Source: a virus
Taxonomy: Duplodnaviria; Caudoviricetes
IMG/VR virus record: IMGVR_UViG_3300028920_000023
Strand: one strand, 5' to 3'
Length of the DNA stretch: 64,000 nt
The stretch's first letter is position 1, and every line of letters starts with the position of its first letter. This document shows positions 5,093 to 39,299 of this stretch, in pieces. The notes below the pieces were generated by a model that did no database searches, had not been told where the DNA came from, and was given only the letters and a program-made list of their open reading frames with translations. A program made the translations under genes and the position numbers.

Positions 5093-7051
5093 TCACTTCA
5101 ACTCTGCTTTAATAAGCTTATGCTGAATCCTAGTGACATGCTCCTTACACAAAGAACGACGAGCACTAAGAGACAAAGACTCAACATCCCTGCCCGTAAT
5201 CGGCTCATAATTCGTACTTAGATAATCAATATCGAAATCAACCTCCCCGATCTCCACCCTCTCATTCGGGCCATACGGGAAGACATCCATCACAAACTGT
5301 GCAATACTCTTCTCTTCCGGAGACAAGCCAGCATCGTCCATCATCTGCTCAAGATGCCTACGCACAATCTGCTTATTCTGGAAAATCACCTTAAACAACG
5401 AAGCGCGAACCCGATCCTCCACACGCTCATGATACTGCGTGATCCTCTGACGACTGACCGACCGCCTAGCCGAATAGCCCGTACAGCCAGTCCGAGCACA
5501 ACAACCACCCTTATGTTCAGAACGATAGGCCCCACAAGGACCAGACGGAGTATCGGAAACGCACTTCTGAATCACCTTGCCAAAATTCTCCGCAAGCCAC
5601 GACCCGGAAGTAGGAACTGGCCTAAAGTACCACTTGCCATTTTCCTCATAGACGGAACCTTGCGTAACTTCAGCAAGCCTGAGACATTCGCCTTCTGGTT
5701 GTTCCAGCGGGAAGCCGTAATAGAAGCAAAGAACGACCTCCTGCTCATAGGTGAGGTCCAGATCATTACGGACCATCTCGATCAATCGGCGTTTGTGATC
5801 TTCTTCTTCGTTCTTGTCGGATATTTCCCTCGGATCCGGCGTCTTCTTATCCATGACATCGAATTCGCGTTCTTCCGAGTCAGAGGTCTTCTCTATAGTC
5901 AGAGGATTGCCGTGGAAGTCCGGGTTAGGAGCTACAACCGAGATAACATCACCAATTGTGCGGTGCCTATCTTGGTTGTAGAACCCGAGGATGCTGGATT
6001 TGTCGTCATCGACTAAGTAATTATACCGCCACTCCAGGAAGCTGAAGAGTTCCCAGACTGTTTCGATCCCCAATTCCTCTAGCGGGAAATCCAACCGGAT
6101 GAGGTTACAATAAGCTAGCTTGTTGCCTAGTTTCTGGATATTGACCATTCGCAGATCTGAGGCTTTGGCGAGCCTGGTCTTTGCCATGGGCACTTTTGCT
6201 TTTCGTGCTTTAGTTACGAAGCCTGATGCTATTTGTTTGGCTTCTTTTATGGCTTCGCTTTGGATCTTGTCTGCTTCTTTCTTTATTTTATCGTAGGATC
6301 TCTTGTCGTGTTTCTTGAGATGTGCGGTTAGAGCTGTTAGGAATTTCTTTTGGTTTTCCCATTCACGCAGAGATCCGGATATTCTGCTGCTGATTTTGCA
6401 GTGTTCTTTTGGGTTGTGTTGCTGGTAGTGTCTGCGTACGAGGCTACCGAGTACTGTTGCGTAATTTGCGAGTTTCTGCTTTTGGACGATGTCGTCGGCG
6501 TGGCGTGTTACCCAGTCTTTGGTCAGCCACGAGGTGACTAGTTTTCTGACTTCGATTGTGCTCGGCAATCGTTCTCCGTCTTGCCTTCGGGAGATTAGTC
6601 CACTGCCTACGGAGCCTCTTCGCACTTTGGTTCTGATGTGTGTGTAGGCGTGTCCTGCGAATGGGCTTTTTCCGGCGTCTGTGCGGAGTGCTGCTATTAT
6701 GCCGATTGCGGCTTCTTGGAATGCGTCTTCGTCGACGAAGCGTTTGGTGCAGTATTTGCTGCAGTGGGTCCTTATAAAGGGTGTCATTGCTAGGATGACT
6801 TCTTCTGTTGTCCAGCCTACGAGCAGTGGTAGTTTGATATGGATTAGGGCTTCAAGTCCGTGTTGTGATAGTGAGCCTTTTTCACGGATTTTGTTTGTTT
6901 CTTCGATCCAACTGTCTATTTCGTCTTGCGTTGGTACTTGGAACTTTTGGAGTGTACTGTCTGGCGGCTCTAGTGCCGCCCAGTTCTGTAGTGCTCCTTC
7001 AGGCAGACACAGGCCTCTTAGCCTCTCGTAGAGGCTTTCTTGCTTTGTCAT
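5093..7051 (-). CDS. giant sigma-70-like factor with large insertions (652 aa)
   Basis: Region 2-like EDAFQEAAIGIIAALRTDAGKSPFAGHAYTHIRTKV; region 4.1-like DLTYEQEVVLCFYYG; region 4.2-like VSRQRITQ. Confidence 0.7.
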   Translation of the reverse strand: MTKQESLYERLRGLCLPEGALQNWAALEPPDSTLQKFQVPTQDEIDSWIEETNKIREKGSLSQHGLEALIHIKLPLLVGWTTEEVILAMTPFIRTHCSKYCTKRFVDEDAFQEAAIGIIAALRTDAGKSPFAGHAYTHIRTKVRRGSVGSGLISRRQDGERLPSTIEVRKLVTSWLTKDWVTRHADDIVQKQKLANYATVLGSLVRRHYQQHNPKEHCKISSRISGSLREWENQKKFLTALTAHLKKHDKRSYDKIKKEADKIQSEAIKEAKQIASGFVTKARKAKVPMAKTRLAKASDLRMVNIQKLGNKLAYCNLIRLDFPLEELGIETVWELFSFLEWRYNYLVDDDKSSILGFYNQDRHRTIGDVISVVAPNPDFHGNPLTIEKTSDSEEREFDVMDKKTPDPREISDKNEEEDHKRRLIEMVRNDLDLTYEQEVVLCFYYGFPLEQPEGECLRLAEVTQGSVYEENGKWYFRPVPTSGSWLAENFGKVIQKCVSDTPSGPCGAYRSEHKGGCCARTGCTGYSARRSVSRQRITQYHERVEDRVRASLFKVIFQNKQIVRRHLEQMMDDAGLSPEEKSIAQFVMDVFPYGPNERVEIGEVDFDIDYLSTNYEPITGRDVESLSLSARRSLCKEHVTRIQHKLIKAELK

Positions 7052-7090
7052 GGCGTTCCTCCCTGGCTAGGGTGCCGACGTAGCTGGCAC

Positions 7091-7119
7091 ATTGTAACAC
7101 AAAGCGATCTCCTTGTCAA
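7091..7119 (-). promoter_or_regulatory. host sigma-70-type promoter
   Basis: Minus strand TTGACA-17 nt-TACAAT, 40 nt upstream of the start at 7051. Confidence 0.85.
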
Positions 7120-7322
7120 GTACAGACCTGCAAGGAAGATATCTCCCGTGCAATGAACGGGGTGCACAGGTGCTACCCAGCTCATTTGCCTACTGGCGTC
7201 CAGCTCTTTTTGGCGGCCACATCATGTGGACAACGCATTAAGGGGCTGTATACGCAGTGTGTTTATCGGGTTAAAGACACCGGGAAATATGGCGGGTGGT
7301 GGCGGTGCCGCTACGGCGTATA

Positions 7323-7404
7323 CCCGTCGCTTGCAGACGAGCAAGCGGACGCGCCTCCCGGACGGGCGCGGTATGCTGGTACCGCCACCGGCGTGTTCAG
7401 TCGT
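7323..7404. repeat. 89-bp GC-rich dispersed element, copy 3 (3' end diverged)
   Basis: First 45 nt identical to copy 2; 75/82 identical overall. Confidence 0.95.
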
Positions 7405-7409
7405 GTTGC

Positions 7410-7889
7410 TTACGGACGAGCAAGACGGCTGCTTATGCGTGTTTTTCGTCTCTCGGTCACCTTGGGGTAGCCCTCGGGGTCGAAAGACCTTGCTGTTCTG
7501 AAGCCAATGACGTTCCTGTCGCCACCACGACAGAGTGCAAAGGTGTAGCCATCTTTGGTGAATAGCTGGTTTTTTCTTGCTTTATTTTGTTCGTAGACCA
7601 GCCAAATGGCTAGTCTGTCCAACAGAGTAGCTGCTGCTTTTGGTGGTGTTTGGCGTATTTCCAGTTCTTTTTCGCCAAATCTTAGCAGTCCTTTCGTGTA
7701 GGCCACTGGGGTTGTTTCGCTATTGTCATAACGGATTGTCCAGGGCGGGGGAGTTGGGGTCTTGCTTGGGATTGTGTGGTTGAGATCGATGATCATCGAT
7801 TGGCTCCGTAGGTATGCACATTGAGCAGTCAAATCCCTGTTTGTTTCATATCGCACATGAGCAGCGCTGAAACCCCCATCGAGCAGCAC
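7410..7889 (-). CDS. hypothetical protein
   Basis: 159-aa ORF in the minus-strand gene run; start uncertain. Confidence 0.55.
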   Translation of the reverse strand: MLLDGGFSAAHVRYETNRDLTAQCAYLRSQSMIIDLNHTIPSKTPTPPPWTIRYDNSETTPVAYTKGLLRFGEKELEIRQTPPKAAATLLDRLAIWLVYEQNKARKNQLFTKDGYTFALCRGGDRNVIGFRTARSFDPEGYPKVTERRKTRISSRLARP

Positions 7890-8013
7890 ATGTGCGATAA
7901 TACCTCCTATCCCAAATTATCTTTTAGTGCAGCACCTGAGACCAACACAACAGCACGTTGCAGCTGTTGCAGCTCTTACAGGACCTTTTATCACGCAAAA
8001 AACAACCAGATAA

Positions 8014-8349
8014 TTACGAATAATACCCCAAGGTCGTCAAAGCAGAAAAACCAACCAAAGACCGCTCATCCTTATCGACCTCAGTAAGGAACAAATCAAA
8101 AACAGCATCACTTTCAACCTCAGTCAACTCCATCAAACCCAGAACAACACAACCAGAATCCCTCCTAGAACCACGATAACAATACAAACGCAGAAAATCC
8201 AAATCCTTCATCTCGCGTCTAATCCTAGTAGACCAATCCTTATCACAATCATCCTCATCATAAATCACAGAAATAATCTTGTACCTAGACAAGACCTCAT
8301 CATAAATCTTACCATACTCCTGCTTAGTCAATCTAACAAGAGCCTCCAT
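8014..8349 (-). CDS. hypothetical protein
   Basis: ATG at 8349 overlaps the upstream TAA (TAATG coupling). Confidence 0.65.
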   Translation of the reverse strand: MEALVRLTKQEYGKIYDEVLSRYKIISVIYDEDDCDKDWSTRIRREMKDLDFLRLYCYRGSRRDSGCVVLGLMELTEVESDAVFDLFLTEVDKDERSLVGFSALTTLGYYS

Positions 8350-8759
8350 TATAACCTCCTCAACAACAAAGAGGAACAACCCGGAACACAACGCAACCTA
8401 CAAAAAGAAAGAACACTACGAACCGGGTAACCACAACAAACACCAATAACAAAATCCCTCAACTGCTTAGGAAGATACTGGTCCTTATAAGCCCAGCACA
8501 ATAAATCCGCAATATCCTCATTCTCGGGTAAAAAAGCAACACCCGTACCAATATCCCTCACCACCAAACCACAACCCTCCAAAGAAGACGGAGCAAAACG
8601 ATACAAAAGAGGCTTCTCACCAGCCAAAACAGCCGATAAACAAACCCCCAACGGCCAACGCCAACTCCGACTCCTAGGAGAAAAATTCAGAGCCCTATCA
8701 TACCAGACACACAAACCATCCGGATCAACAACATTACAATATCTCTTAACAATCATCAC
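8349..8759 (-). CDS. hypothetical protein
   Basis: 136-aa ORF within the operon. Confidence 0.6.
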   Translation of the reverse strand: MMIVKRYCNVVDPDGLCVWYDRALNFSPRSRSWRWPLGVCLSAVLAGEKPLLYRFAPSSLEGCGLVVRDIGTGVAFLPENEDIADLLCWAYKDQYLPKQLRDFVIGVCCGYPVRSVLSFCRLRCVPGCSSLLLRRL

Positions 8760-8774
8760 AATAAATTTGCCACA

Positions 8775-9236
8775 TCACGACTCAAAAAGAAGCTCAACAG
8801 AACCATCCTCCGAGACCTCCTCCGAATCAAAAACAAAACCCTGTTCCTCAAGCTGATCAATAGCAACCTGCTTAGAATACTCACGCATCAACTTATTGCA
8901 ATCCTTCTCACCATCCCCAATGTGACCCATCAAACCAAAACCACCATTATAAAAATCATAGATAACCCGAAAACCACCCTCCCCATCATCAACAAGACCA
9001 ACCTCATAAGCACCAGAAACACCCCTAACCCTCAACACATGATCACACTTACCATACTGACTAGGATCAACACCATCACGATACGCAGCATCCTCAGCAT
9101 GATAATCATTCACCCACTTACCAAACCACCTATACGTCTTTTGGCCACGGACAAGCTCCAAACCAAGCCTGTCCGCAGCACGCTCCAAACAATCCAAATC
9201 AGTCACACGAACCTTCATCGTAACAACATGACTCAT
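8775..9236 (-). CDS. DUF1257 (Ycf35-like) protein
   Basis: MSH.VT....VTDLDCL..A..RLG....RGQKTYRWFG...CDH.L....YEVGL pattern; family normally linked to Ycf46 AAA ATPases. Confidence 0.75.
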   Translation of the reverse strand: MSHVVTMKVRVTDLDCLERAADRLGLELVRGQKTYRWFGKWVNDYHAEDAAYRDGVDPSQYGKCDHVLRVRGVSGAYEVGLVDDGEGGFRVIYDFYNGGFGLMGHIGDGEKDCNKLMREYSKQVAIDQLEEQGFVFDSEEVSEDGSVELLFES

Positions 9237-9487
9237 TCAGTCACCTCCTTAGGATCGCCAAGCGTAGCACCATCATCCAGAAAGCTCTCGGGAATTGCGA
9301 ACCTGACACCACTTAGGTGTTCTCTCATATTCTTCTCGGTCTCTTCCTTGTCCTTGACTCCACAAGCATAGCAGATATAAGCTCCGTTGCGCCCATATGG
9401 GCGCAACTCCGCAATTTTGCCGCAATAATCACACTGTTGCGGCTTTTCTCTCCCAATCACAAAAACGTCCCCAATCCTCTTGCTCAT
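9233..9487 (-). CDS. small CxxC-x16-CxxC zinc-binding hypothetical protein
   Basis: CDYC...CYAC; ATGA overlap with the ligA stop. Confidence 0.65.
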   Translation of the reverse strand: MSKRIGDVFVIGREKPQQCDYCGKIAELRPYGRNGAYICYACGVKDKEETEKNMREHLSGVRFAIPESFLDDGATLGDPKEVTE

Positions 9488-11448
9488 ATCATCCCCCAAA
9501 AATCAGACTCACTAATAATCTCCACACCAAGCTTCCTAGCCTTCTTAGTCTTAGACGACTCCTTAGAAGGATCAGCCTGGACAAGGAAATCAACCCCAGA
9601 AGCAACCTTATCAGACGTGGTTCCACCATTCCGCACAACCACATCCCACATCATCTTCCGAGTAAAACGCTTCCCATCCTCACCCACCTTCTCAATAGCA
9701 CCCGTAAACACAAAACACTTACCAGCAAGAGAACCACCAGAAACAACCGGTGCCTCAGGAGACTCCTCCTCCACAATCCGAACACCAGCATCCAAAAGAC
9801 CCTGATAAAGACCACGGCCAATAACACCACAAATACCCTCACAAACCGCAGTAGCCTTACGCTCACTGAAACCCTCTAAAGCAGAAAGCCTCTCCGGATC
9901 CAACGACAACATATCAACCTGCCCAATACCCTGAGAAATCATAATCTCCATCTGACGACGACCCAAGAACTGGATACCAAGCGAACCCCAAAACTCCTGA
10001 AGGGAGCAAGACTTAGACTTCTCCAATTCGGCCATAATCCTCTTAGCATTAGAACCAACCACACCATTCCCACGAGGGATCGCAGCCAAAACATCCTCAG
10101 TCAAACCATACAGATCAGCCGGAGTCCTAATACCATAATTGTCATACAAGGTCTCCAACAACGTATCACCAATATGCAAAATATTCCTCTTGGTGATCCA
10201 CGTCTTAAGAAGACGAAACTGCTTACCCTCACAGGAATCAGACATACACTTGATATGCGCCCCATCCTTCACTAGCTCAGAAAAGCAAACAGGGCAATTC
10301 GTAGGAGTAAAAATCTGCTCCCTATCCGCAGCTTCATTCGCCACACCAATAACCTTCGGAATAACATCACCAGAACGGATGACCTTGACCTCGTCCCCAA
10401 CAGCCACCCTCAGGCGCTCGATCTCCTCAAAATTGTTCAGAAGAGCACTCGTAACCGTAACTCCCCCAATATGCACAGGAGCCAAATCCGCAGTAGGAAT
10501 AATCGCCCCAGTATGCCCAACCGTAAGCTTAACACCAAGAAGCTTCGTAGTCGCCTCCATAGCCTTAAACTTAAACGCAATACCACCCTTCGGACGATTA
10601 TCGCGAACACCAAGATCCGAAAAAACATCAGAATCATTAAAAAACACAACAAGACCATCAATCTCAACATCCAAACCAGCCCTATCAGAAGCAACCTGCT
10701 GGTGAGTAGCATAGACATCATCCACAGTATGGTGGAGAACAAACCATACCACCTCAAAACCAAGCGATTGAAGAAAAACCAACTTCTCAGAATGAGAAAC
10801 GAATTCATCATCCCCAATCACATCAAACGCGATAAACGAAATACACTGCGCACGATCGCCATCACTCCTTCTGACCGTGCCATTCGCCGCATTCCTCGCG
10901 TTCGCAGCATCACCAAAATGCTTCTCAAAATCCTCCTTAAGAAGAATAGCCTCACCACGAACATGAAGATCCGAACGAATAGGAATCCTCACAGGAACAT
11001 TCTTGAACTTTCGGGCATTTCGCGTAATATCCTCACCGAAATGGCCATCACCACGAGTTATAGCCTGGACCAAAATCCCATCCTTATAAATAAGCTCTAC
11101 CGAAGAACCATCGAGCTTATGCATAACCAACAGCTCAGCCATTTCAGATTCAATACCAACATCCTTAATCCGCCTAGCATGCCACTCCCTGAACGAAGGC
11201 GTGGCATTATCCCCATCTCTTGAGCAATTATTCAAACTGCCCATAGGGATCTTATGTTCAGCCTTCGTCAGGTGATCAGCTACCGGAGCGCCCACAGACG
11301 ACAAAATGGGATGATCCGGACACTTCTCACGAACGTAATCCTTAAGCTCATCATACTCGGCATCAGACATGATACTACTGCCGGTATTGTAATAAGCTCT
11401 GTCAGCTTCCATGAGCTTAGACGTAACTTCCTTAAGTTGGTCTTTCAT
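9484..11448 (-). CDS. ligA: NAD-dependent DNA ligase
   Basis: YY...SDAEYDEL N-terminus, KLDG adenylation motif, VRGE, EIDGLV, CPVC zinc finger, HhH repeats, C-terminal BRCT. Start taken at 11448 from AAGGAG spacing. Confidence 0.97.
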   Translation of the reverse strand: MKDQLKEVTSKLMEADRAYYNTGSSIMSDAEYDELKDYVREKCPDHPILSSVGAPVADHLTKAEHKIPMGSLNNCSRDGDNATPSFREWHARRIKDVGIESEMAELLVMHKLDGSSVELIYKDGILVQAITRGDGHFGEDITRNARKFKNVPVRIPIRSDLHVRGEAILLKEDFEKHFGDAANARNAANGTVRRSDGDRAQCISFIAFDVIGDDEFVSHSEKLVFLQSLGFEVVWFVLHHTVDDVYATHQQVASDRAGLDVEIDGLVVFFNDSDVFSDLGVRDNRPKGGIAFKFKAMEATTKLLGVKLTVGHTGAIIPTADLAPVHIGGVTVTSALLNNFEEIERLRVAVGDEVKVIRSGDVIPKVIGVANEAADREQIFTPTNCPVCFSELVKDGAHIKCMSDSCEGKQFRLLKTWITKRNILHIGDTLLETLYDNYGIRTPADLYGLTEDVLAAIPRGNGVVGSNAKRIMAELEKSKSCSLQEFWGSLGIQFLGRRQMEIMISQGIGQVDMLSLDPERLSALEGFSERKATAVCEGICGVIGRGLYQGLLDAGVRIVEEESPEAPVVSGGSLAGKCFVFTGAIEKVGEDGKRFTRKMMWDVVVRNGGTTSDKVASGVDFLVQADPSKESSKTKKARKLGVEIISESDFWGMI

Positions 11449-11461
11449 CGACATAACTCCT

Positions 11462-12244
11462 TTAGAGATCCAAGATTCGCGAACCGATCGAAGCAAAAGC
11501 ACCCACAACCTGCCTACTGACAGAAGATTTACCCATCTTCTTTTCGACTTCCTCTACCAAATCATCACTTTTCTTCTCATCAAAATCCAAAATCCGCTTC
11601 GGATGCTGAATATTCACAGCCGAAACCCTATTAGGTCCGGAATCCAGATCGAGAACACGAGCACTCTTCGCAAAAGTATCGATCGCAATGACCTGGCGAA
11701 CGGACTCAGCCAATCTCTTAACAAAATTACGCACACCAGCAGCAAAACCCGAACTGGTCTGATAAGAGGAAGAGAAACCGAGATCAGAATCGAGATCAGA
11801 CAACGTCCTAGTCTCATTCTTGGATAAAACAAGATGAGTTCTTTCTCTAGTCCAAGAATTCATTATCTCCACATAGATATGATCTGTGGGATTATAACCA
11901 GGAAGCTCAACAAGCCTATTATCCTCAAGACGTACAAACAAAGTCCGCACAATCTTGTTCTGATGGCCGATATCATCAGCCGTCTGCTTCTCCTCCTTAT
12001 ATTGCTTATCGTCTACAAGCTGATACCTCTTCCCAGCTTTGTCTTTCGTCTTATCTGCAATTTTCTTCTGTATAAAGCGCGCAGCAGCATCATGAGTACC
12101 GAATCTCTTGGTCTGTTCAGAAATATTAGAACCAATTCTGCCCCATTTAATCTCGACAGTCGTATCGTCTATGAACTTGTAACTCCACAGCTTATTGCTG
12201 TTAGAGTCCTTGCTGATGTACCGAATCTCTTTCCCTATATCCAT
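11462..12244 (-). CDS. WGR-domain protein
   Basis: N-terminal SNKLW...VEIKWGRIG...A.RF..KKI.DK; ends in RILDL. Confidence 0.8.
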   Translation of the reverse strand: MDIGKEIRYISKDSNSNKLWSYKFIDDTTVEIKWGRIGSNISEQTKRFGTHDAAARFIQKKIADKTKDKAGKRYQLVDDKQYKEEKQTADDIGHQNKIVRTLFVRLEDNRLVELPGYNPTDHIYVEIMNSWTRERTHLVLSKNETRTLSDLDSDLGFSSSYQTSSGFAAGVRNFVKRLAESVRQVIAIDTFAKSARVLDLDSGPNRVSAVNIQHPKRILDFDEKKSDDLVEEVEKKMGKSSVSRQVVGAFASIGSRILDL

Positions 12245-12269
12245 TTGCTACCTCCTACTCGGGGTTAAT

Positions 12270-12292
12270 TCAGCAGAGATTACCTCTGCTGA
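12270..12292. terminator. intergenic hairpin
   Basis: TCAGCAGAG-attac-CTCTGCTGA. Confidence 0.5.
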
Positions 12293-12303
12293 TTCGGAAC
12301 TCC

Positions 12304-13227: not shown

Positions 13228-13264
13228 AAATCCTCCTTTGGCTAGAAGCCGAACCTGAAAATCC

Positions 13265-13633: not shown

Positions 13634-13635
13634 TA

Positions 13636-28331: not shown

Positions 28332-28409
28332 GTCCCCGTAGCTCAGCCAGGATAGAGCATCTGTCTTCTAAACAGAATGTCGAAGGTTCGAATCCTTCCG
28401 GGGATGCCA
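28332..28409 (+). tRNA. tRNA-Arg(UCU)
   Basis: D stem GCTC/GAGC, anticodon arm TCTGT-CTTCTAA-ACAGA, T arm GAAGG-TTCGAAT-CCTTC, encoded CCA. End coordinate +/-1. Confidence 0.93.
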
Positions 28410-28564: not shown

Positions 28565-28605
28565 AGACACAATTTACTAAAATAACAATCAGAACCTTGA
28601 TGACA

Positions 28606-28632
28606 GTCGAAGGTTCGAGTCCTGGCGGGGAT
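28606..28632 (+). pseudogene. tRNA 3'-half-like fragment
   Basis: GTCGAAGGTTCGAGTCCTGGCGGGGAT: a T loop plus CGGGGAT complementary to GTCCCCG. Confidence 0.5.
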
Positions 28633-28664
28633 ATGCTCCTCAAAGATACAAAGAGGAGACAAAC

Positions 28665-29033
28665 ATGCGCGACATAATCGACGAAATGCTAATCGAAATC
28701 CATAACGAAAACAAAATACTAGAAGCAACAGAAAGATTATATCCAAAACTCAAACTGCTAGAATCAACCAAAAGAATAATAACCGAAGGAAGATTATTCA
28801 AAAGATACCTAGCCTACCTCCTAACAAGATACAACGTATTCAAGAAACCAATCACCGCCATAGACATGCGCAAAGCAATAGAAAACGTCCTCAAAGCTCA
28901 ACAAGAAGGAATGGACTGGTCTGACGAAGAACTACAATCCCTAATAACAGACCACATATCAGACGAAGGAATAATCGGAAGCTTATTCCGAGAATTGAAT
29001 AAAAGAAAAATACCCTACATCCTACCAAAATGA
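28665..29033 (+). CDS. hypothetical protein
   Basis: CAAAGATA (28641-28648) and GAGGAG upstream. Confidence 0.75.
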   Translation: MRDIIDEMLIEIHNENKILEATERLYPKLKLLESTKRIITEGRLFKRYLAYLLTRYNVFKKPITAIDMRKAIENVLKAQQEGMDWSDEELQSLITDHISDEGIIGSLFRELNKRKIPYILPK

Positions 29034-29738: not shown

Positions 29739-29930
29739 TTACTCCCTTACAATAGCTTTTTTGGGTAGTTGTTCTCTGGTTGCTTTCCAGACTCCTGTTT
29801 TTAGGAATTTGTAATAATATTCTTGTTTTAGACTTCCATCTTTGTCATATTCTGGTATACGCCACCAGGGGTGTCTTGATGTTCCTTTTGATATTTTCTC
29901 ATTCTTGCCCATCTTAAAGCCCAGGAACAA
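29739..29930 (-). CDS. hypothetical protein
   Basis: 63-aa ORF; start uncertain. Confidence 0.5.
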   Translation of the reverse strand: MFLGFKMGKNEKISKGTSRHPWWRIPEYDKDGSLKQEYYYKFLKTGVWKATREQLPKKAIVRE

Positions 29931-30216
29931 TGTCCCCGGCAGATGCTCCTGTGGCTTTCACGATCTTCCTAAGAGAATCTACCGAAGGATCTCGATGCAC
30001 ATCGTCCTTCTTGCTCTTATATCGTGAAACCGTGCTCGGATGCAGCCCAGCCTTCTGGGCTATATCTTGCTGAGTTTCCCCAGAATTGACATAAGCACGT
30101 TTGATCTTGGATATTTCATCATCTCGCACTTTTCTCTTGGTGTCTTTCACGCTTTTCCCGTCCTCTTCCTCAGAAAGAGAAACAAGACCCTGCGTATGAA
30201 GTTCATATAATTTCAT
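29914..30216 (-). CDS. XRE-family HTH protein
   Basis: TQQDIAQKAGLHPSTVSRY...PSVDSLRKIVKATG; CAAAAATA at 30233-30240 upstream. Confidence 0.8.
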   Translation of the reverse strand: MKLYELHTQGLVSLSEEEDGKSVKDTKRKVRDDEISKIKRAYVNSGETQQDIAQKAGLHPSTVSRYKSKKDDVHRDPSVDSLRKIVKATGASAGDIVPGL

Positions 30217-30300
30217 AATTGTCTCCTCACCTTATTTTTGAACCAGAAGCACCTTTTAAGAGCATATAAGAAAGATATTATATAACAAAAGGAGAACATT

Positions 30301-30753
30301 ATGGTAGCACCAAAAGAAAAACACAAAGACTGTCGGTGCCTTCGCTGCGAAAAACACGTTCAAAAAATGCTAGACGAGCATGGCTGGATAGTGGATCTCA
30401 TCAGAGATGGTGACAAACCAAACTTCCATAGCCATTATCTAGAAAGCTACCTTGGACACAAGGACATCCAATTAGTCTATCCTTTACCCGACAATCTAGT
30501 CGGCGGGATCATGCACACCGTGGTGGGCAATATCAAAAAAGGAAGGAAGTATAAAGCTGGAGATATAACCAGCAGCGTTCTAGAGGGACTGGACGTACTG
30601 TTCGTAGAAGCCACAGAAACTGGACGTACAGTTCTGAGAATTATTCTACCAGATAAAGAAGGTAGACTCAAACCTGGGGAAATCATTAGTCCATACGATA
30701 TGCAATGGGACGAGAACGTGAAAATTCCTGAGGCCTACCAGAAAATCGACTAA
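30301..30753 (+). CDS. hypothetical protein
   Basis: AGGAG SD; 150 aa. Confidence 0.75.
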   Translation: MVAPKEKHKDCRCLRCEKHVQKMLDEHGWIVDLIRDGDKPNFHSHYLESYLGHKDIQLVYPLPDNLVGGIMHTVVGNIKKGRKYKAGDITSSVLEGLDVLFVEATETGRTVLRIILPDKEGRLKPGEIISPYDMQWDENVKIPEAYQKID

Positions 30754-30780
30754 GTAAATATCCTAAAAAGGAGATTTATT

Positions 30781-31402: not shown

Positions 31403-31922
31403 ATTGGTTTCTTCTAGCTATTCCAGACAGGTATGAACAAAGCCAGAAGTATCCGTCTTTGATCCATTCGGCGTCTTTGAGTGCGTCATGCGCGCCTTCT
31501 TCTTGTTTTGGTAGTTTGTCTCTGGTTATTCCGTAGGCGTTTAGTGATTGCATGAGGTCCAGGCATAATTTTGGGAAGTGTTTTGGTAGTTTGTACATGG
31601 GTCCGAATAACCAACAGAAGTTTACCCAGTCATAATCTGCGAAGTATCCCCAGAATAGTGGGTTTTCGTCTTTGCCTATGAAGTCGAGTATTTCGTCTCT
31701 TATTTGTGTTCTGGTTTTCCATTGGTCTTTTGGTGGTAGTTTGGGTAGGACTTCTCTCATTAGGAAGTTGTGTTTTTTAGCTGCTTCGTAATCGAATTCT
31801 TTGCTAACTGCGTAATATTTCTTTTTGCCGGTTTCACAGACGATCCCTATGCTTATTAGTTCTATTCTTCCTCCGGTTGCGTCTGGCATTTCGTGAAATT
31901 CGGTGTCTATGAAGTACCTCAT
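31392..31922 (-). CDS. DEDD 3'-5' exo(ribo)nuclease, Rv2179c/DUF5051-like
   Basis: YFIDTEF, LISIGIV, FADYDWV, HDALKDA. Confidence 0.88.
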   Translation of the reverse strand: MRYFIDTEFHEMPDATGGRIELISIGIVCETGKKKYYAVSKEFDYEAAKKHNFLMREVLPKLPPKDQWKTRTQIRDEILDFIGKDENPLFWGYFADYDWVNFCWLFGPMYKLPKHFPKLCLDLMQSLNAYGITRDKLPKQEEGAHDALKDAEWIKDGYFWLCSYLSGIARRNQSKS

Positions 31923-31959
31923 AGTTGTCTCCGGTTTATAGATATTTACGTCGCGATAA

Positions 31960-32223
31960 TTATTCAGTCAAATGATTCTCGATAATATCCATAATCTCGG
32001 CGATATCATCATCGACGAAGTCCCTCAGACCAATAATTTTATGCCAATCCTCCTCAGTAAGAGAAAGATCGCTATTCGGACCCAACAAGTTCTGTAAACG
32101 ACTGATTTCGGAAGACAGAACACCCAATTCACAGAATAAACTAATCTGTTGATCCTTAGTTAGATCAACTTTCACAATCCGATTGTGGCCTACGCAATCC
32201 GAAGCATGAGCAGGCTCTGTCAT
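31960..32223 (-). CDS. hypothetical protein
   Basis: GAGGAG SD; 87 aa. Confidence 0.65.
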   Translation of the reverse strand: MTEPAHASDCVGHNRIVKVDLTKDQQISLFCELGVLSSEISRLQNLLGPNSDLSLTEEDWHKIIGLRDFVDDDIAEIMDIIENHLTE

Positions 32224-32374
32224 TATGTGCTCTCCTCTTGTCTTTCACTTTGGAGTCAATGCATTCGCACATCTTGGAGTGATTGAATTCTTCGTCTGCT
32301 TCGCCCCAAAATATACAGTCTCTGCATTTCTTGTTTCTAGGATTATAGTTAGATATTATTGTTATTATGGACAT
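32165..32374 (-). CDS. small Cys-rich hypothetical protein
   Basis: C.DC..W...C.C...C.CF pattern; start uncertain (32374 or 32440). Confidence 0.45.
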   Translation of the reverse strand: MSIITIISNYNPRNKKCRDCIFWGEADEEFNHSKMCECIDSKVKDKRRAHNDRACSCFGLRRPQSDCES

Positions 32375-32467
32375 ATGTCCCCCACCAAGACAACCGTCGC
32401 GGTCTTCCTTTTGCCGTCCGTTCCGCGTTGAACAGATCACCGGACTGAACGATAGAGCGTTGGCTTA

Positions 32468-32921
32468 CCACGCGCCCGTACGCACGCGGAACGATTTGGC
32501 CACTAGGAGTACAGCTCGCTGTACCACGCGCCCGTACGCACGCGGAACAAACCCTCCGGCAGTAGGCCAGTCAGGTTTGCCTTACCACGCGCCCGTACGC
32601 ACGCAGAACAAACCCAACGTCCACAACAGGGATGAAGTGAACAGCCCACGCGCCCGTTGACGTCCACTTTTGGCCATTGCACGTTCCACGCGCCCGTACG
32701 CACGCGGAACAGACCCTACCGCCGTTGCCTACGTCATTTGCCCAAACCACGCGCCCGTACGCACGCGGAACAGACGTTCTGTCCAGGGTCGGCACTACCC
32801 CACGCGCCCGTACGCACGCGGAACTCGGCGTGCCTGCTCGCGTTGACGCTGTTGCTCCACGCGCCCGTACACACGCGGAACTCCGTAACGATTCCTGTGG
32901 GCAAAGCGTGCTGGGCGGAAC
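32468..32921. CRISPR. CRISPR-like repeat-spacer array, no cas genes in window
   Basis: Repeat CCACGCGCCCGTACGCACGCGGAAC at 32468, 32524, 32585 (1 mismatch), 32686, 32747, 32800, 32857 (1 mismatch); 12-nt truncated copy at 32646; GCGGAAC remnant at 32915. Spacers 31, 36, 36, 28, 36, 28, 32 nt. Confidence 0.75.
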
Positions 32922-33094
32922 TCCATAGTTCGTCTTCGACTATCACTTCTGGATAGCCTCTAGGCGACCGTATAGCCTGAAAACCCACAGGACTGAATTG
33001 TCAAAGAACCACTGCGGACCGCTTGTATCGAAGCAGGAAAACACATAAATTTAATCATCAATAGTATCATCATCTGATTTGAAAACACTAAGGA

Positions 33095-33122
33095 TTGCGC
33101 CGATAATTATCACGAGTATAAT
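33095..33122 (+). promoter_or_regulatory. sigma-70-type promoter with palindromic operator
   Basis: TTGCGC-16 nt-TATAAT. Perfect palindrome GATAATTATC (33102-33111) in the spacer; second ATAATTATCAC overlapping the -10. Confidence 0.55.
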
Positions 33123-33217
33123 TATCACCGCAGAAATAAGTAATCCAGAAGTCATAAAAGAGCCTCCAGCACACAACTTTCAACACCATAAAAAAGAGGT
33201 ACTATGCACATTGTGAG

Positions 33218-33277
33218 GTCGATACAAGGAGAAACACCATGCGCTGCGTCGATACAAGGAGAAACACCATGCGCTGC
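33218..33277 (+). repeat. exact 30-bp tandem duplication spanning SD and start codon
   Basis: GTCGATACAAGGAGAAACACCATGCGCTGC x2. Confidence 0.95.
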
Positions 33278-36172
33278 ACCTATGCACTCCTCTTTTTTGC
33301 ACCCGTTCTATGTTTTGGCACAGAAGAAGCCCTACTCAACACAGACGCCACCACAGACACAGACAAACACGACTGGCGCATCCACGCAGACACCAACCAA
33401 CAAGGCCTCTGGCACGCCATCTGGTATCGCACCAAACCAGACAACACAATCAGCATCCTAAAAGCCAAAAGCACCGACAACGGATACACCTGGAACACAC
33501 CAACAGTCCTAAGCCAAAACAGCATCGCAGACGCCAAACACACATCACCCAAAATAGCCACAGACAAACAAGGCCTCTGGGTAGCCACCTGGATGACAAA
33601 CGACAACCAACAAGGACGCAAAACCTCCTACAACATAGCCATACGCACAAGCACAAACAACGGAGAAACCTGGACCAAAACCAAAATCATCGGAACAAAC
33701 TCCTGCAAAGACCCAGACATCAAAATACACAACGGAACAATACTAATAGCCTGGGACTACTGGGACGGCAACAAAACCAACATCGCATATAGAACCAGCA
33801 CAAACGGAAGCACCTGGAGCAACACAACAATCTTCAACCACGACGGAGACGACAGCAACGTCAACATAGAAGCACACAACAGCACCTGGGCCATAACCTG
33901 GAGCAAAACCTACACAATCGGATCATACAAACAATCAGACATCTTCCTAACCCACAGCACAGACCTACAAAACTGGACAACACCACAAAAAATCAACAAC
34001 GGCAAAACAGGACAACAAAGCTACGACATCTACCCAAAAATCGAAACAAACGGAAACAAGTGGGTAGTCATCTGGAACGGCAAAAACACACTCAACAACG
34101 CCGGAACAGACTACGACATCATCAGCACAACCAGCACAGACCTACAAAACTGGACAACACCAACCGTTGTCAACAGCAACGGCACAACAGACAACAGATC
34201 AGACGAAGACCAGCAAATCGTCTACAACCAAGGAATTTGGACAGCAGTATGGTCCGGCTCCAATAACGTAGACATCAACGACATGGACGTCTACTACGCC
34301 ACAAGCACAGACGGACAAAACTGGGGGCCAAGGCAAGCCCTCAAATCAAACACCTACACAGATCCAACCTGGGTCGACGACGAAGCACCAAACATCTTCA
34401 CAGACGGAACTGGCTGGCTAATTGCCTGGACCTCCGAAGACAACAGAGACAACTGCGAAGCAGACAGAGACCTCTTCTACACCGTCAGCACAGACGGACA
34501 AAACTGGAACACCACACCACCAGCACCCCTAATCGCACAAGACGACCAATACACAACACAAGAAGACCAAAGCATACACAACAGCGTACTAACCAACGAC
34601 AACCCAGAAATATCATCAAGATCATTAGTCGCAAAACGAACCACCCTAAACGCCACACTAAACTCGCCACCCTCACATGGAACACTAGACTTCCATGCCG
34701 ACGGAACATTCACATACCAGCCAGACACCGGATACAATGGACAAGACACCTTCACATACACCGCCACAGACGGGATAAGAATATCCAACGAAGCCACAGC
34801 GCACATCACCGTACAGCCCATCAACGCCATAATACCAACCGCCATAATACAAGCCAGCCTCTGGAATATCCAGGTCGGTGATGATGTAGGATTCGATGGT
34901 AGCCATTCAGAAGATATCGACGGGGAAATTATAGAACACCTGTGGGATTTCGGAGATGGAACCATCATGGTAGGTGAGATACTAACTCACAAGTATAACA
35001 ACCCAGGCAATTATGAAGTCACACTCACAGTAACAGACAACGAAGGACTAACCGATAACGATACAATCATTATTATAGTAGAAAAAACAGAAGAAGGCAA
35101 CGATAAATTCGATATCGACGACGGCAAAATAACACCAAAAGACACATATATCGTCACAGCCAAAGTACTTGGAGCAGCCATCGAGATACCAGGACAATAC
35201 GAACTCATGGTCACAACCAGAATCAAGATCGGGGACGAAATCTTCGAATGCTGGGGAGACTGGAACAATGCGACCGAATCCAACGTGAACGACCATCAAG
35301 TGCATACCTGGACATCCGATAGAGAATTCGACATGCTCCCAATCTCCGCACAGGGGAAATCCTGGAAGAAGTACGGACAGAGCTGGAGACCCTTTATAAC
35401 AGTAGACTCAGAAACAAAACCTCAAATGGTCAAAATACTCAAGAATGGAGACACAATCCCAAATCTCTTGCCCTGGAACAACCAGAGCAATATAGAGGAT
35501 TTCATACAAGGCTTTCTGGATCTAGAGACGAATACCATCACACTGAACGAGAACGAAGCGATTTTCCTTTTCGAACTGGGTACAACCGACCCACACAGCG
35601 CCGCAGCCGATTACCAAGACCTCGTTGTCCTAATCTCCCTCGGGGAACCAGAACCCACACCAGAACCCACACCAGAACCCACACCAGAACCCACACCAGA
35701 ACCCACACCAGAACCCACACCAGAACCCACACCAGAAGCCAGAAAACCAGGATTTAAGCAGCTAAAATACAGAACAGTCTGGGATAAAGACAATCAAGAC
35801 CAATTCATGCTTAAAATGATAGACTTCGACGGACAGAACGGAGACCAAATAACAATAACCGTAGGCAAAAACACCTGGACAATCGAACTAGGGAAAGGAA
35901 ACGCACACAAAGACAACAATATAAGAGCCAAAGTGACCTCAAGCAACATGCTAATGTTCAAATGCGTGAGAGGAAACTTTGAAGACAACCTAGACTACAG
36001 ATCAAAGAAACAAAAGAAAGGAACAATGACACTGCCCATCACTGTCAATATAAACGAATCAACATTCAATTATAAAATCGACGTCGATTACAAAGTAAAA
36101 TCCAGGAAGAAAGAAGAATTCTCAATCTTCGGAAAGGACCTACGCAAAAGAAGAAAAACTAACCGTTTCTAA
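33269..36172 (+). CDS. large exported-type multidomain protein (signal peptide, Asp-box beta-propeller, Ig/cadherin-like, PKD, PEPT linker)
   Basis: Hydrophobic N-terminus; S-x-D/N-x-G-x-x-W Asp boxes; AQDDQY...GTL...DGTFTY.P; FDGS.S.D.DG.I...WDFGDG; (PEPT)7. Confidence 0.85.
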   Translation: MRCTYALLFFAPVLCFGTEEALLNTDATTDTDKHDWRIHADTNQQGLWHAIWYRTKPDNTISILKAKSTDNGYTWNTPTVLSQNSIADAKHTSPKIATDKQGLWVATWMTNDNQQGRKTSYNIAIRTSTNNGETWTKTKIIGTNSCKDPDIKIHNGTILIAWDYWDGNKTNIAYRTSTNGSTWSNTTIFNHDGDDSNVNIEAHNSTWAITWSKTYTIGSYKQSDIFLTHSTDLQNWTTPQKINNGKTGQQSYDIYPKIETNGNKWVVIWNGKNTLNNAGTDYDIISTTSTDLQNWTTPTVVNSNGTTDNRSDEDQQIVYNQGIWTAVWSGSNNVDINDMDVYYATSTDGQNWGPRQALKSNTYTDPTWVDDEAPNIFTDGTGWLIAWTSEDNRDNCEADRDLFYTVSTDGQNWNTTPPAPLIAQDDQYTTQEDQSIHNSVLTNDNPEISSRSLVAKRTTLNATLNSPPSHGTLDFHADGTFTYQPDTGYNGQDTFTYTATDGIRISNEATAHITVQPINAIIPTAIIQASLWNIQVGDDVGFDGSHSEDIDGEIIEHLWDFGDGTIMVGEILTHKYNNPGNYEVTLTVTDNEGLTDNDTIIIIVEKTEEGNDKFDIDDGKITPKDTYIVTAKVLGAAIEIPGQYELMVTTRIKIGDEIFECWGDWNNATESNVNDHQVHTWTSDREFDMLPISAQGKSWKKYGQSWRPFITVDSETKPQMVKILKNGDTIPNLLPWNNQSNIEDFIQGFLDLETNTITLNENEAIFLFELGTTDPHSAAADYQDLVVLISLGEPEPTPEPTPEPTPEPTPEPTPEPTPEPTPEARKPGFKQLKYRTVWDKDNQDQFMLKMIDFDGQNGDQITITVGKNTWTIELGKGNAHKDNNIRAKVTSSNMLMFKCVRGNFEDNLDYRSKKQKKGTMTLPITVNINESTFNYKIDVDYKVKSRKKEEFSIFGKDLRKRRKTNRF
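35648..35737 (+). repeat. 12-bp coding tandem repeat (PEPT)7
   Basis: CCAGAACCCACA x7, all identical. Confidence 0.95.
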
Positions 36173-36509
36173 TCCTTTCACTCAAATACTCGACCTCCTG
36201 TCTAATCCGCTGATCCGTCTCAACAGCATGGCCCATCCTGCGAACAACATAATGGACCGAAGAATGATCACGATCACAAAAAAACTGACCAATCTCAGAC
36301 AAACTATGATCAGTCAACTCCCTACATAAATAAATCGCAAAATGCCTAGCCCTAACAGCCGTAACATGCCTCCGATGCGAACGAACGACATCCCTGTCGA
36401 TATTATATCTAGAAGCAACAACACCAACTATCTCCGACATCGACAAAATGCTACCAACCTCCCTATCTGGGGACCACCTACCGCACCAGGGGCATCTCAT
36501 CATGACCAC
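36159..36509 (-). CDS. stand-alone DnaA domain IV (DnaA-box-binding HTH) protein
   Basis: I...VA..Y.I....V.S.RR...VRARHFAIYLCRELTDHSLSEIGQFF..RDHSSV; N-terminal CPWC; no AAA domain. Confidence 0.88.
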   Translation of the reverse strand: MVMMRCPWCGRWSPDREVGSILSMSEIVGVVASRYNIDRDVVRSHRRHVTAVRARHFAIYLCRELTDHSLSEIGQFFCDRDHSSVHYVVRRMGHAVETDQRIRQEVEYLSERIRNG

Positions 36510-36892
36510 CCATCAAAACCAACAGAACCGTATTCCACACGTGTACAAAAGACCGACAGGCTGTAGCTTGTGCTCTGCAAAACGAAGTCGATTCGGTAGT
36601 ACCTGTCCTGGTCCCGGATGATGTCCCCTCTGGTCGGTGGTATCGTCAGATTGATGAATTTCCTATCGTCATTCTTTCTGTTGCTGATCAGCAGATTCGC
36701 TCTAAGCCCCTTTAGACTTTCCTCTAGGCCGTCACAAATGTCCAGAATTCGGTCATGCTCGTAATCATCGAATTGTGTTACGACGATACTGCCGTCTCTG
36801 ATGTGTAGATCCGGTGCTGGTTCCCAACCGACATCACCTTTAAAGCTAAGGCATGATATTGCTCTTACTTCGTTGCTCTTGTGTATCTGCAC
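36500..36892 (-). CDS. hypothetical protein
   Basis: 130-aa ORF with SD. Confidence 0.6.
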   Translation of the reverse strand: MQIHKSNEVRAISCLSFKGDVGWEPAPDLHIRDGSIVVTQFDDYEHDRILDICDGLEESLKGLRANLLISNRKNDDRKFINLTIPPTRGDIIRDQDRYYRIDFVLQSTSYSLSVFCTRVEYGSVGFDGWS

Positions 36893-36993
36893 TTTGTGTT
36901 CTCCCTTTTCCCCGTCCTATCGCTCCATATGCGATTAGGAAGTAGAGCGCCAAAAACATATATCTTCGATATCGCCTGCGTAAAGCTATCCAT

Positions 36994-37001
36994 CAAAGAT
37001 A
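36994..37001 (+). promoter_or_regulatory. putative phage late promoter CAAAGATA
   Basis: 24 nt upstream of the ATG at 37026. Confidence 0.6.
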
Positions 37002-37025
37002 CCATAAGACAAGGAGACAATACTG

Positions 37026-39299
37026 ATGGAACTGAGTGAAAAACTAGATCGCGTGTTTGGTCTAAAGCAAGTATTCGTTGAAGAAAATCAAGTATTAGAC
37101 GCCAACAAATGGCAAGCAGCAGACCCAGACCACCTAAACAAATTAGCTTTCTCTAAAAGCACAGGAGCACGAATGAACGCGCTCCTGAGAATCTTACGCG
37201 ATCTAGGCGAATACGACCTATTAAACACAATCAAAAAATATGACTCAGAAAATCCAAATTCAAGAAATCTAGCTTATGAGCTATACAAGCAAGCACGCAA
37301 AGAAGCACGCAAAGAAGCCAACAAAAGAGCTGCCATAGACCCCACCAGACGCGGCAAAGTCTTACGCAGAAGAGAAGCAGAAGCGCCAGCAGCTGGTATA
37401 GAGAAATCCCCAGAATCCAAACTGGTGGACCTGGCCCAAGCACGAGAAAAACCAGACAGAGAAAGACCAGACGATTATCGTTGGGCAATCATGGATGTAG
37501 ACACCGGAGAATATGCCAAAGACGACCAAGGCCACGCCATAACCGCAGAAACAGAAGACGACGCCCAAGCCCTAATCGACGGCGAAGTCGATATGTTCCC
37601 AGACCCGGACCAGTACACACCTAAAAGAATTGAAAACCCCAAATCACTAAAAGCACTAAGTAAAATCGTTAAACCACTACAGAATGGTTGGACTATGGAC
37701 GAAGTAGTCAAAGCGCTCATGCCTTATATCAGAAGTTTATCATGGAAATTCAGAAATGAAAAAGCAGACTTCGACGACCTAACTCAGACAGGCGCATTAG
37801 CCGTACACAACGCTATAGAAACAGACAAAGGCATAGCGCCATTCGCATGGCACGCCTATCCGCATGTCAAAGGGGCAATCATGAACACCGCCCTACGTGG
37901 TGGCGTAGTGTCCGGAGGAGAAAGAACATTCCGGCAAAAAGGACCAATCTCCGGATATACCATACTCTGGCGAGAACCAGAAGACAACCCAGACGAAGAA
38001 CCTAGATCAATTCACTTCGGCAGTAAAGAAATGACCGGAGCTCAATATGGGGGAACAGCTAGAGCAGAAGCGGGAAAAGGCGGAAGATCCGACCCCGGTC
38101 TAGAAAAAGCAAAACAGATGCAAGACCGACTCCGCGAAAGAGGTATCATCTCAGCCATCCGACCAGAACGACAAAGACTGGCGTCAATGGCATCCAAACT
38201 AAAAGGATCAGAAGGACAAACCGAACTTGGCGATACAGTCAAAGCAACCAAAGTAGCATCCCCAGAATTCATAACCCAACAGCAAGAATTATTCAATATG
38301 CTTATGGATAAAGCAGAATTGAATGATAAAGAAAAAGAAGTAATGAGAATGGCCTATGGACTCGATGTACCAGAAGCAGGACTTAGAGGCCCCTCCTACA
38401 GCGGAAGAGACCAAGGCGTCTTCGGTCCACCCGAATCAGGTGAAAAAGAAAGAAAACCGGGAGAACAATGGGGCATACCCTCGCCAACTGCCCAAGGCAA
38501 GCTCCTCAGACGCCATGCAGGCGAACTCGAAGGAGAACCCGAAGCAAGAGGGCCAGTAGAAATATCCGATATCCTGGGAATGCCGCGTAGCACCGTAAAA
38601 CGAAATTTCCAATCCGGTAGTAAGAAGCTGTACAAAGCAAGAGACGAACTATACAAACAATACCCGCATCTGCGACCCTTCATGAACAAAGCCTTTGGGA
38701 AGAAAAAAGCAGAAGAACCAGTAGGGAAGCCAACAAAGAAAGCCGCAAGGAAACCAAAGCCCGCAACAGTACCGGCTGCAGCGCCAGGGCAATACGACCA
38801 AGAAACGCTAGACTGGGCTCAAAAACACGGCTTCCCGCCAGAACAAGCCGCAATAATGATGCAAGCATTACGTAGCGCAGGAAAATTAGATGATAGCTTA
38901 GACAGAATCTTCGATGGGGAACTAGATCAACTGGACGAGCGATTTGGGCGAAAAGAAGTACCAAACATCAAAGCAACAAACTATTATTGCGCACGATGTG
39001 GGGAAACTACAAGACACTCCCTCAGAGGAGATAAATCGACCTGCGAAAAATGTGGAGCCATAAAAAGCAAAGTAACAGAAAGCCAAGCAGTATACGAAGC
39101 CAACATCATGTACCGTACATTCCTTAAAGCAACAAGGAAAATACGTAAAGCAGCCATAGAAGAAATAGACGAAAGATCAAAGCACATCCTAGAAGGAATA
39201 GACGAGCAAGAAATCAAAAACCTCTTAGAAATAGAAGACATCTGCAGACAACACCTGATAAAAGCAATCGTCTCCGGAGATTACAACGACATCGTCTAA
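37026..39299 (+). CDS. giant sigma-70-like factor (757 aa), paralogue of 5093..7051
   Basis: Region 2-like DDLTQTGALAVHNAIETDKGIAPFAWHAYPHVKGAI; region 3.2/4.1-like TELGDTV...SPE...LNDKEKEVMRMAYGL; HTH EISDILGMPRSTVKR. Confidence 0.75.
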   Translation: MELSEKLDRVFGLKQVFVEENQVLDANKWQAADPDHLNKLAFSKSTGARMNALLRILRDLGEYDLLNTIKKYDSENPNSRNLAYELYKQARKEARKEANKRAAIDPTRRGKVLRRREAEAPAAGIEKSPESKLVDLAQAREKPDRERPDDYRWAIMDVDTGEYAKDDQGHAITAETEDDAQALIDGEVDMFPDPDQYTPKRIENPKSLKALSKIVKPLQNGWTMDEVVKALMPYIRSLSWKFRNEKADFDDLTQTGALAVHNAIETDKGIAPFAWHAYPHVKGAIMNTALRGGVVSGGERTFRQKGPISGYTILWREPEDNPDEEPRSIHFGSKEMTGAQYGGTARAEAGKGGRSDPGLEKAKQMQDRLRERGIISAIRPERQRLASMASKLKGSEGQTELGDTVKATKVASPEFITQQQELFNMLMDKAELNDKEKEVMRMAYGLDVPEAGLRGPSYSGRDQGVFGPPESGEKERKPGEQWGIPSPTAQGKLLRRHAGELEGEPEARGPVEISDILGMPRSTVKRNFQSGSKKLYKARDELYKQYPHLRPFMNKAFGKKKAEEPVGKPTKKAARKPKPATVPAAAPGQYDQETLDWAQKHGFPPEQAAIMMQALRSAGKLDDSLDRIFDGELDQLDERFGRKEVPNIKATNYYCARCGETTRHSLRGDKSTCEKCGAIKSKVTESQAVYEANIMYRTFLKATRKIRKAAIEEIDERSKHILEGIDEQEIKNLLEIEDICRQHLIKAIVSGDYNDIV

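Follow-up and report, generated by a model that had tools for sequence, protein, structure and literature searches.

Two distantly related sigma-70 family proteins are encoded in a 64,000-nucleotide stretch of phage DNA (Duplodnaviria; Caudoviricetes; IMG/VR record IMGVR_UViG_3300028920_000023), referred to here as the window. The A-type protein, P0001, consists of 652 amino acids (aa) and the B-type protein, P0002, of 757 aa; sequence profiles and structural models place both in the sigma-70 family. The A gene lies behind a host-type promoter and the B gene behind a -10-only element, CAAAnATA, that is associated with late genes. This wiring is kept in related giant phages and has the look of a conserved switch by which the phage seizes the host polymerase. 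As a whole, the observations are best explained by a phage sigma cascade on the host core RNA polymerase (RNAP), with a probability of about 75%.

Two divergent subfamilies of sigma-70 proteins

An earlier note, made from the letters of the window alone, had described two giant sigma-70-like paralogues that share a distinctive region 2. Both open reading frames (ORFs) are present at the sizes it gave, the first of them on the minus strand, which the note had left unstated; no third family member besides A and B was found within the 64 kb. By BLASTP, A 66-159 and B 208-306 are 38% identical (E 3e-16) over a block of ~95 residues that includes the motif quoted in the note, which supports the paralogy. 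The rest of the two proteins shows no significant mutual alignment.

An exhaustive profile search over 1.84 billion representatives detects 217 metagenomic proteins of this family at E <=0.001, 105 of them at <=1e-10. Subfamily counts cover 153 sequences, comprising P0001, P0002, P0003 and the 150 representatives listed of the 217. In local phmmer comparisons two groups emerge, each alignable over nearly the full length with just one of P0001 and P0002: at least 36 sequences are A-type (median 592 aa) and at least 26 are B-type (median 648 aa, up to 1206 aa), with region 2 alone common to the remaining 91. The shared hallmark is D-x-x-Q ... A-L-x-T-D-x-G-x-x-P-F-x-x-H/Y-A. Neither tblastn of both proteins nor blastn of 6 kb gives a match among 50,697 deposited phage genomes, and a single-protein scan of IMG/VR gives none. 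A word-based search with P0001 returns no match even to itself, which is a limit of its candidate step; a metagenome scan yields four short loci and no more, and a structural search of the ESM Atlas yields TM values of ~0.2 only.

Two near-complete relatives are available, G001 (a 246,684 bp IMG/VR contig) and G002 (IMGVR_UViG_3300029288_000065, 233,959 bp). The window, G001 and G002 each harbor one A-type and one B-type gene, and these are the only matches to Sigma70_r2 in the two relatives. The B-type gene of G001 encodes 566 aa, and the B-type hallmarks of G002 (region 2 and region 3.2/4.1, conditional E 4e-12) lie inside an ORF of 2140 aa.

This 2140-aa ORF (151259-157681, minus strand, partly contained in locus L008) lies behind CAAAAATA and adjoins a 1786-aa late-promoter gene. 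The motifs YENPRSL, GWT, ALENDK and SLD...LTDRERNLLMLKFGL are spread over ~600 residues with huge inserts, and the ORF may be a hyper-expanded or fused sigma.

Assignment to the sigma-70 family relies on profiles and models rather than on standard annotation. Pfam Sigma70_r2 scores 17.6 and 21.8 bits in the two proteins against a gathering score of 24, and Sigma70_r4 matches B weakly, below its gathering score, so that such sigma genes remain unannotated. Against solved SigA, RpoD and RpoS chains, a profile of 25 B-type sequences matches best to SigA (8x6f_E, E 8.7e-15) in three collinear pieces, namely P0002 235-295 (region 2), 375-448 (regions 3.2/4.1) and 507-539 (region 4.2). A profile of 30 A-type sequences gives a weaker match to solved sigma factors (E 7e-4), with pieces in region 2, P0001 381-548 (region 3.2-4) and 573-637 (a second region-4-like segment).

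The AlphaFold2 models have a predicted local distance difference test score (pLDDT) of 84 for A and 69 for B. In Foldseek searches of the PDB, the top 50 matches of both models are all sigma chains in RNAP holoenzymes; the A model has nothing at E <=0.001, its best match being at 0.05. VIA-align superimposes domain 2 of A (59-152) on domain 2 of sigma70, RpoS and SigA with a root-mean-square deviation (rmsd) of 2.5-3.3 Å over 83-93 residues (Z 7.1-7.8), and domain 2 of B (205-295) on 1sig at 1.8 Å over 71 residues (Z 9.8) and on 7xya_F at 2.6 Å over 86 residues. A Z near 7-8 alone is not decisive, but all rows listed for A and for B are sigma chains or models that contain a sigma. Structure prediction, which had been suggested along with the note, thus recovers the sigma domain 2 fold in A and in B.

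The note had also proposed co-folding with the beta' clamp helices, and for domain 2 of A the prediction is favorable. Residues 60-165 co-folded with E. coli beta' 230-340 reach an interaction prediction score from aligned errors (ipSAE) of 0.74 against 0.01 for the best control, a mark reached in 58 of 80 solved complexes and 2 of 110 mismatched pairs; the polymerase is an E. coli stand-in and like complexes are already solved, so that the score speaks for likeness and is no proof of binding. The runs share at least 85% of contacts, with a partner pLDDT of at least 76. Predicted contacts place A 108-116, via D108, Q111 and E112, on beta' 274-298, corresponding to the interface of region 2.2 with the clamp helix. 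The aspartate and glutamine of region 2.2 are invariant (D108/Q111 in A, D251/Q254 in B). The region 2.3 aromatics that melt the -10 element (Y430, W433 and W434 of E. coli sigma70) are replaced in A and B by histidine or tyrosine, by a variable residue and by histidine, respectively. Many alternative sigmas likewise lack the tryptophans of region 2.3, and the replacement argues for a different promoter chemistry and not for exclusion from the family. The predicted function of both proteins is promoter-specific initiation via core RNAP.

The domain architecture of both subfamilies includes large insertions. Region 4 of A aligns in the order LTxxQExVL..GL, ..LAxxFG, variable insert, VSRQRITQY. 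Within the region 4.2 helix-turn-helix, the turn carries an insert whose length differs between subfamily members (~6 to 80 residues) and which is rich in Cys in only some of them, P0001 included; a further insert precedes this helix-turn-helix. Some VIA alignments of A extend to residue 652. Region 4.1 of B comprises residues 413-448, as aligned to SigA. The split region 4 described in the note is therefore present in both proteins, with the Cys-rich insert in A (residues 497-523) as claimed, and inserts of this kind would fit promoters that do not need a -35 contact. The long N-terminal extensions attributed to both proteins hold for B, in which domain 2 begins at about residue 205, and not for A, in which it begins at about residue 59. 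The 200-residue extension of B contains a confident small beta domain (151-203). The zinc-ribbon-like insert in the C-terminal tail of B is missing from P0003.

Two conserved promoter classes

The promoter upstream of the A gene, TTGACA-17-TACAAT with an extended -10 TG, is the sole such site in the window. Across eight of eight independent loci (the window, L003, L004, L010/11, L012, L013, L014/15 and L048), TTGACA-17-TAnAAT, usually with the extended -10 TG, lies 28-67 nucleotides (nt) before the A-type start codon, and the A-type proteins of these loci are just 26-38% identical to P0001. The near-consensus host promoter that the note had placed before the first sigma is thus a conserved feature. 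Sites of the TTGACA type are not enriched genome-wide: the window, G001 and G002 contain 3, 17 and 13 of them, and shuffled sequences 3, 21 and 25 on average. The A gene therefore has one of the very rare host-consensus promoters of each genome. Conservation in sequence establishes the host-type wiring of the A gene, for which we infer early timing.

The flanks of the hexamers also show common features. The promoters of the window, L004, L010, L012, L013, L014 and L048 carry TGTGn or ATGG directly before the -10 hexamer, resembling a TRTG -16 region, and 'ac' before TTGACA. Such a -16 region is a typical trait of promoters in Gram-positive bacteria and is a possible hint to the host type.

The B-type genes are preceded by a second class, in agreement with the note: CAAA[GTCA]ATA lies 20-27 nt before the B-type ATG in eight of eight loci (the window, L005, L016, L017/18, L019, L046, L047 and the G002 homologue). 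The exact form CAAAGATA is not enriched in the window (5 against 3 expected). Within 8-40 nt before start codons, CAAANATA occurs 8 times in the window (0.27 expected, p 6e-10), 15 times in G001 (1.7 expected, p 4e-10) and 23 times in G002 (1.6 expected, p 3e-19); the enrichment of CAAAnATA before gene starts amounts to 9-30 fold across the three genomes. CAAAnATA is also the top 8-mer found de novo in G002. No -35 partner is found in the 45 nt upstream of the motif.

In G002, genes for the tail sheath (phrog_23, E 1e-80) and for a head-tail adaptor follow CAAAnATA, which hence is assigned to a late class of promoters. The distance from the motif to the start codon is 14-30 nt, both for structural genes and for the B-type sigma gene. 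If it spans positions -13 to -6, its invariant A3 and T7 would fall at -11 and -7, as in -10 elements of the sigma-70 type, and the leaders of 8-24 nt that follow would contain the ribosome-binding site.

A search for a second (middle) promoter motif returned suggestive k-mers only: ACGTAAA, AATATCT and, in G001, GGTCCCAAGTCC. ACGTAAA(A)TATCT or TAAATATC occurs 12-36 nt before several start codons (52650-52745, 31923-31950, 30750-30780 and 45722-45770), partly together with CAAAnATA in the divergent 52650-52745 region. These words are a candidate promoter or operator class, not significant after multiple testing. Among words in the 90 nt upstream of G001 gene starts, GGTCCCAAGTCC-like 8-mers show the highest enrichment (8 against 0.64 expected); they are probably a repeated RNA or terminator element that is unrelated to CAAAnATA.

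A proposed sigma cascade and its alternatives

In the proposed cascade, A and B would act as initiation factors on the host core RNAP and replace the host sigma. The host holoenzyme would transcribe the A gene soon after infection via the TTGACA-type promoter, and a phage sigma would then take the core polymerase to the -10-only CAAAnATA promoters. Since CAAAnATA precedes both the structural genes and the B gene, B would be a late product, which may reinforce late transcription or read a further promoter class. By elimination and by analogy with phage SPO1, A is the most likely reader of CAAAnATA, at roughly even odds.

The elimination relies on factors that are absent from the related genomes. 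No phage RNAP was seen in the window, G001 or G002, and searches of G001 and G002 with the RNAP beta family (PF00562) and with the T4 gp55-type sigma families (phrog_234, phrog_12791) gave no match. The same two gp55-type families do not match P0001 or P0002. An identity with gp55 was also tried by hhalign of A1 against T4 gp55 and rejected (probability 0.1, no relation). G002 encodes a T4 gp23-type capsid protein (E 5.6e-79). The T4-type capsid and the lack of RNAP and gp55-type matches assign the clade to the 'group 2' jumbo phages, which have no RNAP. Jumbo phages that lack an RNAP combine the host polymerase with sigmas of their own (PMC7824862, PMC13282480). The cascade put forward in the earlier note is thus plausible, no other sigma or phage RNAP being detectable in the two relatives; that the host-transcribed sigma would drive late genes is an expectation reached by elimination.

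Several points weigh against the cascade. The Pfam scores of both A and B lie below gathering, and with the region 2.3 aromatics replaced, their promoter chemistry cannot be read from known sigmas. CAAAnATA is assigned to A over B by elimination and analogy, and the gene calls behind the motif counts were home-made. Profile searches could miss a very diverged gp55-like or other specificity factor, and the searches for a further sigma covered two relatives and, of the 354-kb genome, the 64 kb of the window.

An arrangement in which the roles are exchanged is unlikely, although several observations point in its direction. Here B would read CAAAnATA, A would read a middle class and start B, and B would amplify itself and drive the structural genes as a positive-feedback late switch. 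The B gene always lies behind the motif that it would read, and because the ligase, the helicases and many other genes have neither promoter class, another class must exist, for which the window offers candidate motifs such as ACGTAAA(A)TATCT. However, no middle-class motif is significant, and the sequence upstream of the CAAAnATA site of B shows no promoter that would depend on A. Regions 2.3-2.4 of A are nearly invariant, matching an invariant motif, whereas those of B vary more, and G002 has the strongest motif enrichment despite a 2140-aa B homologue with a weak region 2. Improbable in our estimate is the packaging that the earlier note also raised, in which B is made late, packaged and injected, and in the next cell directs the host core polymerase to the few TTGACA-type promoters, that of A included. 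It would account for the co-regulation of B with virion genes and for large expansions (representatives of 953-1206 aa, and 2140 aa in G002 beside a 1786-aa late gene), which injected phage proteins often show. The RERxRQ-like region 4.2 helix retained in the subfamily consensus, and early promoters that are few and share flanks beyond the hexamers, are also consistent with it. Yet the early promoter is strong and of the ordinary host type, so that no phage factor is needed for it, P0002 itself has a deviant recognition helix, and late expression is equally expected of a late-acting sigma.

If packaging does occur, a long shot, B would be an initiation factor that arrives with the virion and lets the early program start on the host core polymerase, even where the sediment host is starved. 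The giant relatives of B, up to 2140 aa in size, would then be multi-domain versions of such an injected factor, and the system would be the sigma-based equivalent of the virion RNA polymerases that N4, phiKZ and crAss-like phages inject. It is very improbable that one or both proteins are no longer initiation factors and serve as decoys that sequester the host core polymerase, or as DNA-binding regulators on a sigma scaffold. The replaced melting residues of region 2.3, the large inserts in the turn of the A helix-turn-helix and the sub-threshold similarity to sigma models would suit such a role; against it, both subfamilies keep the full collinear sigma architecture over deep divergence, the core-binding residues of region 2.2 are invariant, and no other candidate reader of the strongly enriched motif was found. 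The cascade of initiation factors remains the preferred reading.

Genome setting and relation to known systems

The window is part of a giant phage; the same B-type protein is also present on contigs of up to 354,787 bp. The public runs that contain this stretch are three marine-sediment DNA metagenome runs, a possible source; no RNA run is listed among them. The A-type genes have an NAD-dependent ligase a few small genes upstream, with synteny kept, and the B-type genes are typically single plus-strand genes flanked by minus-strand genes. The features of the window are collected in the table.

Table. Positions of the sigma genes, their domains and the promoter elements in the window
Feature	Position	Strand	Basis or remark
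A-type sigma gene, P0001, 652 aa	5093..7051	minus	ORF and translation
A sigma domain 2, regions 1.2-2.4, residues 59-152	6596..6877	minus	VIA-align, co-fold
A region 4.1 to 4.2 with two inserts, residues 428-558	5378..5770	minus	profile positions 330-446 align to SigA 258-354
Cys-rich insert in the turn of the A region 4.2 helix-turn-helix, residues about 496-528	5468..5566	minus	low pLDDT at 499-527
A second region-4-like C-terminal domain, residues 564-651	5099..5362	minus	profile positions 461-527 align to RpoD region 4 (552-613)
Sigma70-type promoter TTGACA-17-TACAAT with extended -10 TG	7091..7119	minus	39 nt before the A ATG
B-type sigma gene, P0002, 757 aa	37026..39299	plus	ORF and translation
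B sigma domain 2, residues 205-295	37638..37910	plus	VIA-align, residue map
B region 3.2 linker and region 4.1, residues 361-448	38106..38369	plus	conditional E 2.7e-10 against SigA 250-323
Disordered insert between B regions 4.1 and 4.2, residues 449-506 (58 residues)	38370..38543	plus	pLDDT <50 at 451-504; gap between profile pieces
B region 4.2 helix-turn-helix, residues 507-557	38544..38696	plus	aligned to SigA 326-358; weak Pfam Sigma70_r4 at 512-534
CxxC...CxxC zinc-ribbon-like insert, B C-terminal tail	38973..39065	plus	weak Pfam zinc-ribbon matches at 648-689
CAAAGATA, candidate -10-only late promoter of the B gene	36994..37001	plus	24 nt before ATG
CAAAGATA before ORF 28665-29033	28641..28648	plus	
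CAAAGATA before ORF 59693-60694	60713..60720	minus	
CAAAAATA before 839-aa ORF 50130-52649	52670..52677	minus	
CAAACATA before 574-aa ORF 57089-58813	58840..58847	minus	
CAAAAATA before ORF 45377-45721	45736..45743	minus	
CAAAAATA before ORF 29914-30216	30233..30240	minus	
CAAAAATA before ORF 4275-4709	4251..4258	plus	

A small minus-strand gene at 36159-36509 encodes a helix-turn-helix like that of the DnaA C-terminus (PF08299, precomputed calls). It is divergent from the B-type sigma gene and lies just upstream of it, a position kept on other contigs with the same protein. From 32000 to 40000 the AT skew is very strong, up to +0.45, with negative GC skew (2-kb windows). The late region harbors large proteins (at 33239-36172, 60722-63865 and 46303-52649): one of 977 aa has Big_9, cadherin-like and PKD domains, one of 1047 aa has a PA14 domain, and those of 1276 aa and 839 aa have no family match. 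These genes adjoin fucosyltransferase-like, epimerase and ThyX genes. A tRNA-Arg(TCT) at 28332-28409 is called by both ARAGORN and Rfam and is the sole match of the Rfam scan. A tRNA T-arm-like GGTTCGAGTCC stretch at about 28600-28640, called by neither program, lies ~200 nt downstream of this tRNA and directly 5' of the CAAAGATA at 28641.

Cellular sigma-70 factors of groups 1 and 2 (RpoD/SigA, RpoS) share with A and B the domain 2 fold, the D-x-x-Q-E core-binding motif of region 2.2, the region 3.2 linker (SLD.P.G in B) and regions 4.1 and 4.2 in the same order. Unlike these, A and B have replaced region 2.3 aromatics, the A-L-x-T-D-x-G-x-x-P-F-x-x-H-A hallmark and region 4 inserts of at least 58 residues. 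B has no clear domain 3 and carries its N-terminal extension and zinc-ribbon tail, and A has a second region-4-like domain. Among phages, the RpoD-like sigmas of the 'group 2' jumbo phages (Iyer et al. 2021, PMC7824862) likewise belong to giant phages with a T4-type capsid and no polymerase, and a size of 500-700 aa also occurs in the large sigmas of the cultured Bacillus phages Eldridge and Slash and Vibrio phage Kuja. A and B differ from those phage sigmas in having no sequence match in the 50,697 deposited phage genomes and in forming two co-occurring paralogous subfamilies, each with fixed promoter wiring, with no minimal gp55-type sigma detected.

The proposed circuit resembles that of SPO1 (host sigma A, then gp28, then gp33/gp34), in which an early gene under a host promoter encodes a sigma that redirects the core, and the gene of a later sigma is controlled by a phage class of promoters. 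SPO1 has small sigmas that recognize -35/-10 promoters, in contrast with sigmas of 650-760 aa and a -10-only class in the A/B phages. The T4 late system (gp55, gp33 and gp45 at TATAAATA) shares with these phages a T4-type virion module and an 8-bp, A/T-rich, -10-only promoter shortly before structural genes. Unlike T4, the motif is CAAAnATA, no gp55 homologue is detected, and the candidate readers are full-length sigmas with a modified region 4. Phage sigmas, including RpoD-like ones and ones of 500-700 aa, are already known. The new elements are two unannotated subfamilies, their one-plus-one co-occurrence, strictly conserved early/late promoter wiring, the split region 4 architecture and a -10-only late class in a T4-type lineage with no detectable gp55.

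Giant phages that lack a polymerase are assumed to reprogram the host polymerase via sigmas of their own. To our knowledge, the wiring of promoters to sigmas has not yet been worked out in uncultured lineages. The analysis provides a testable circuit of two sigma subfamilies, invisible to standard annotation, and two conserved promoter classes. It suggests that a lineage with a T4-type virion runs T4-like late promoter logic with full-length, split-region-4 sigmas in place of gp55/gp33. With the promoter motifs, genes of these phages can already be assigned to temporal classes.

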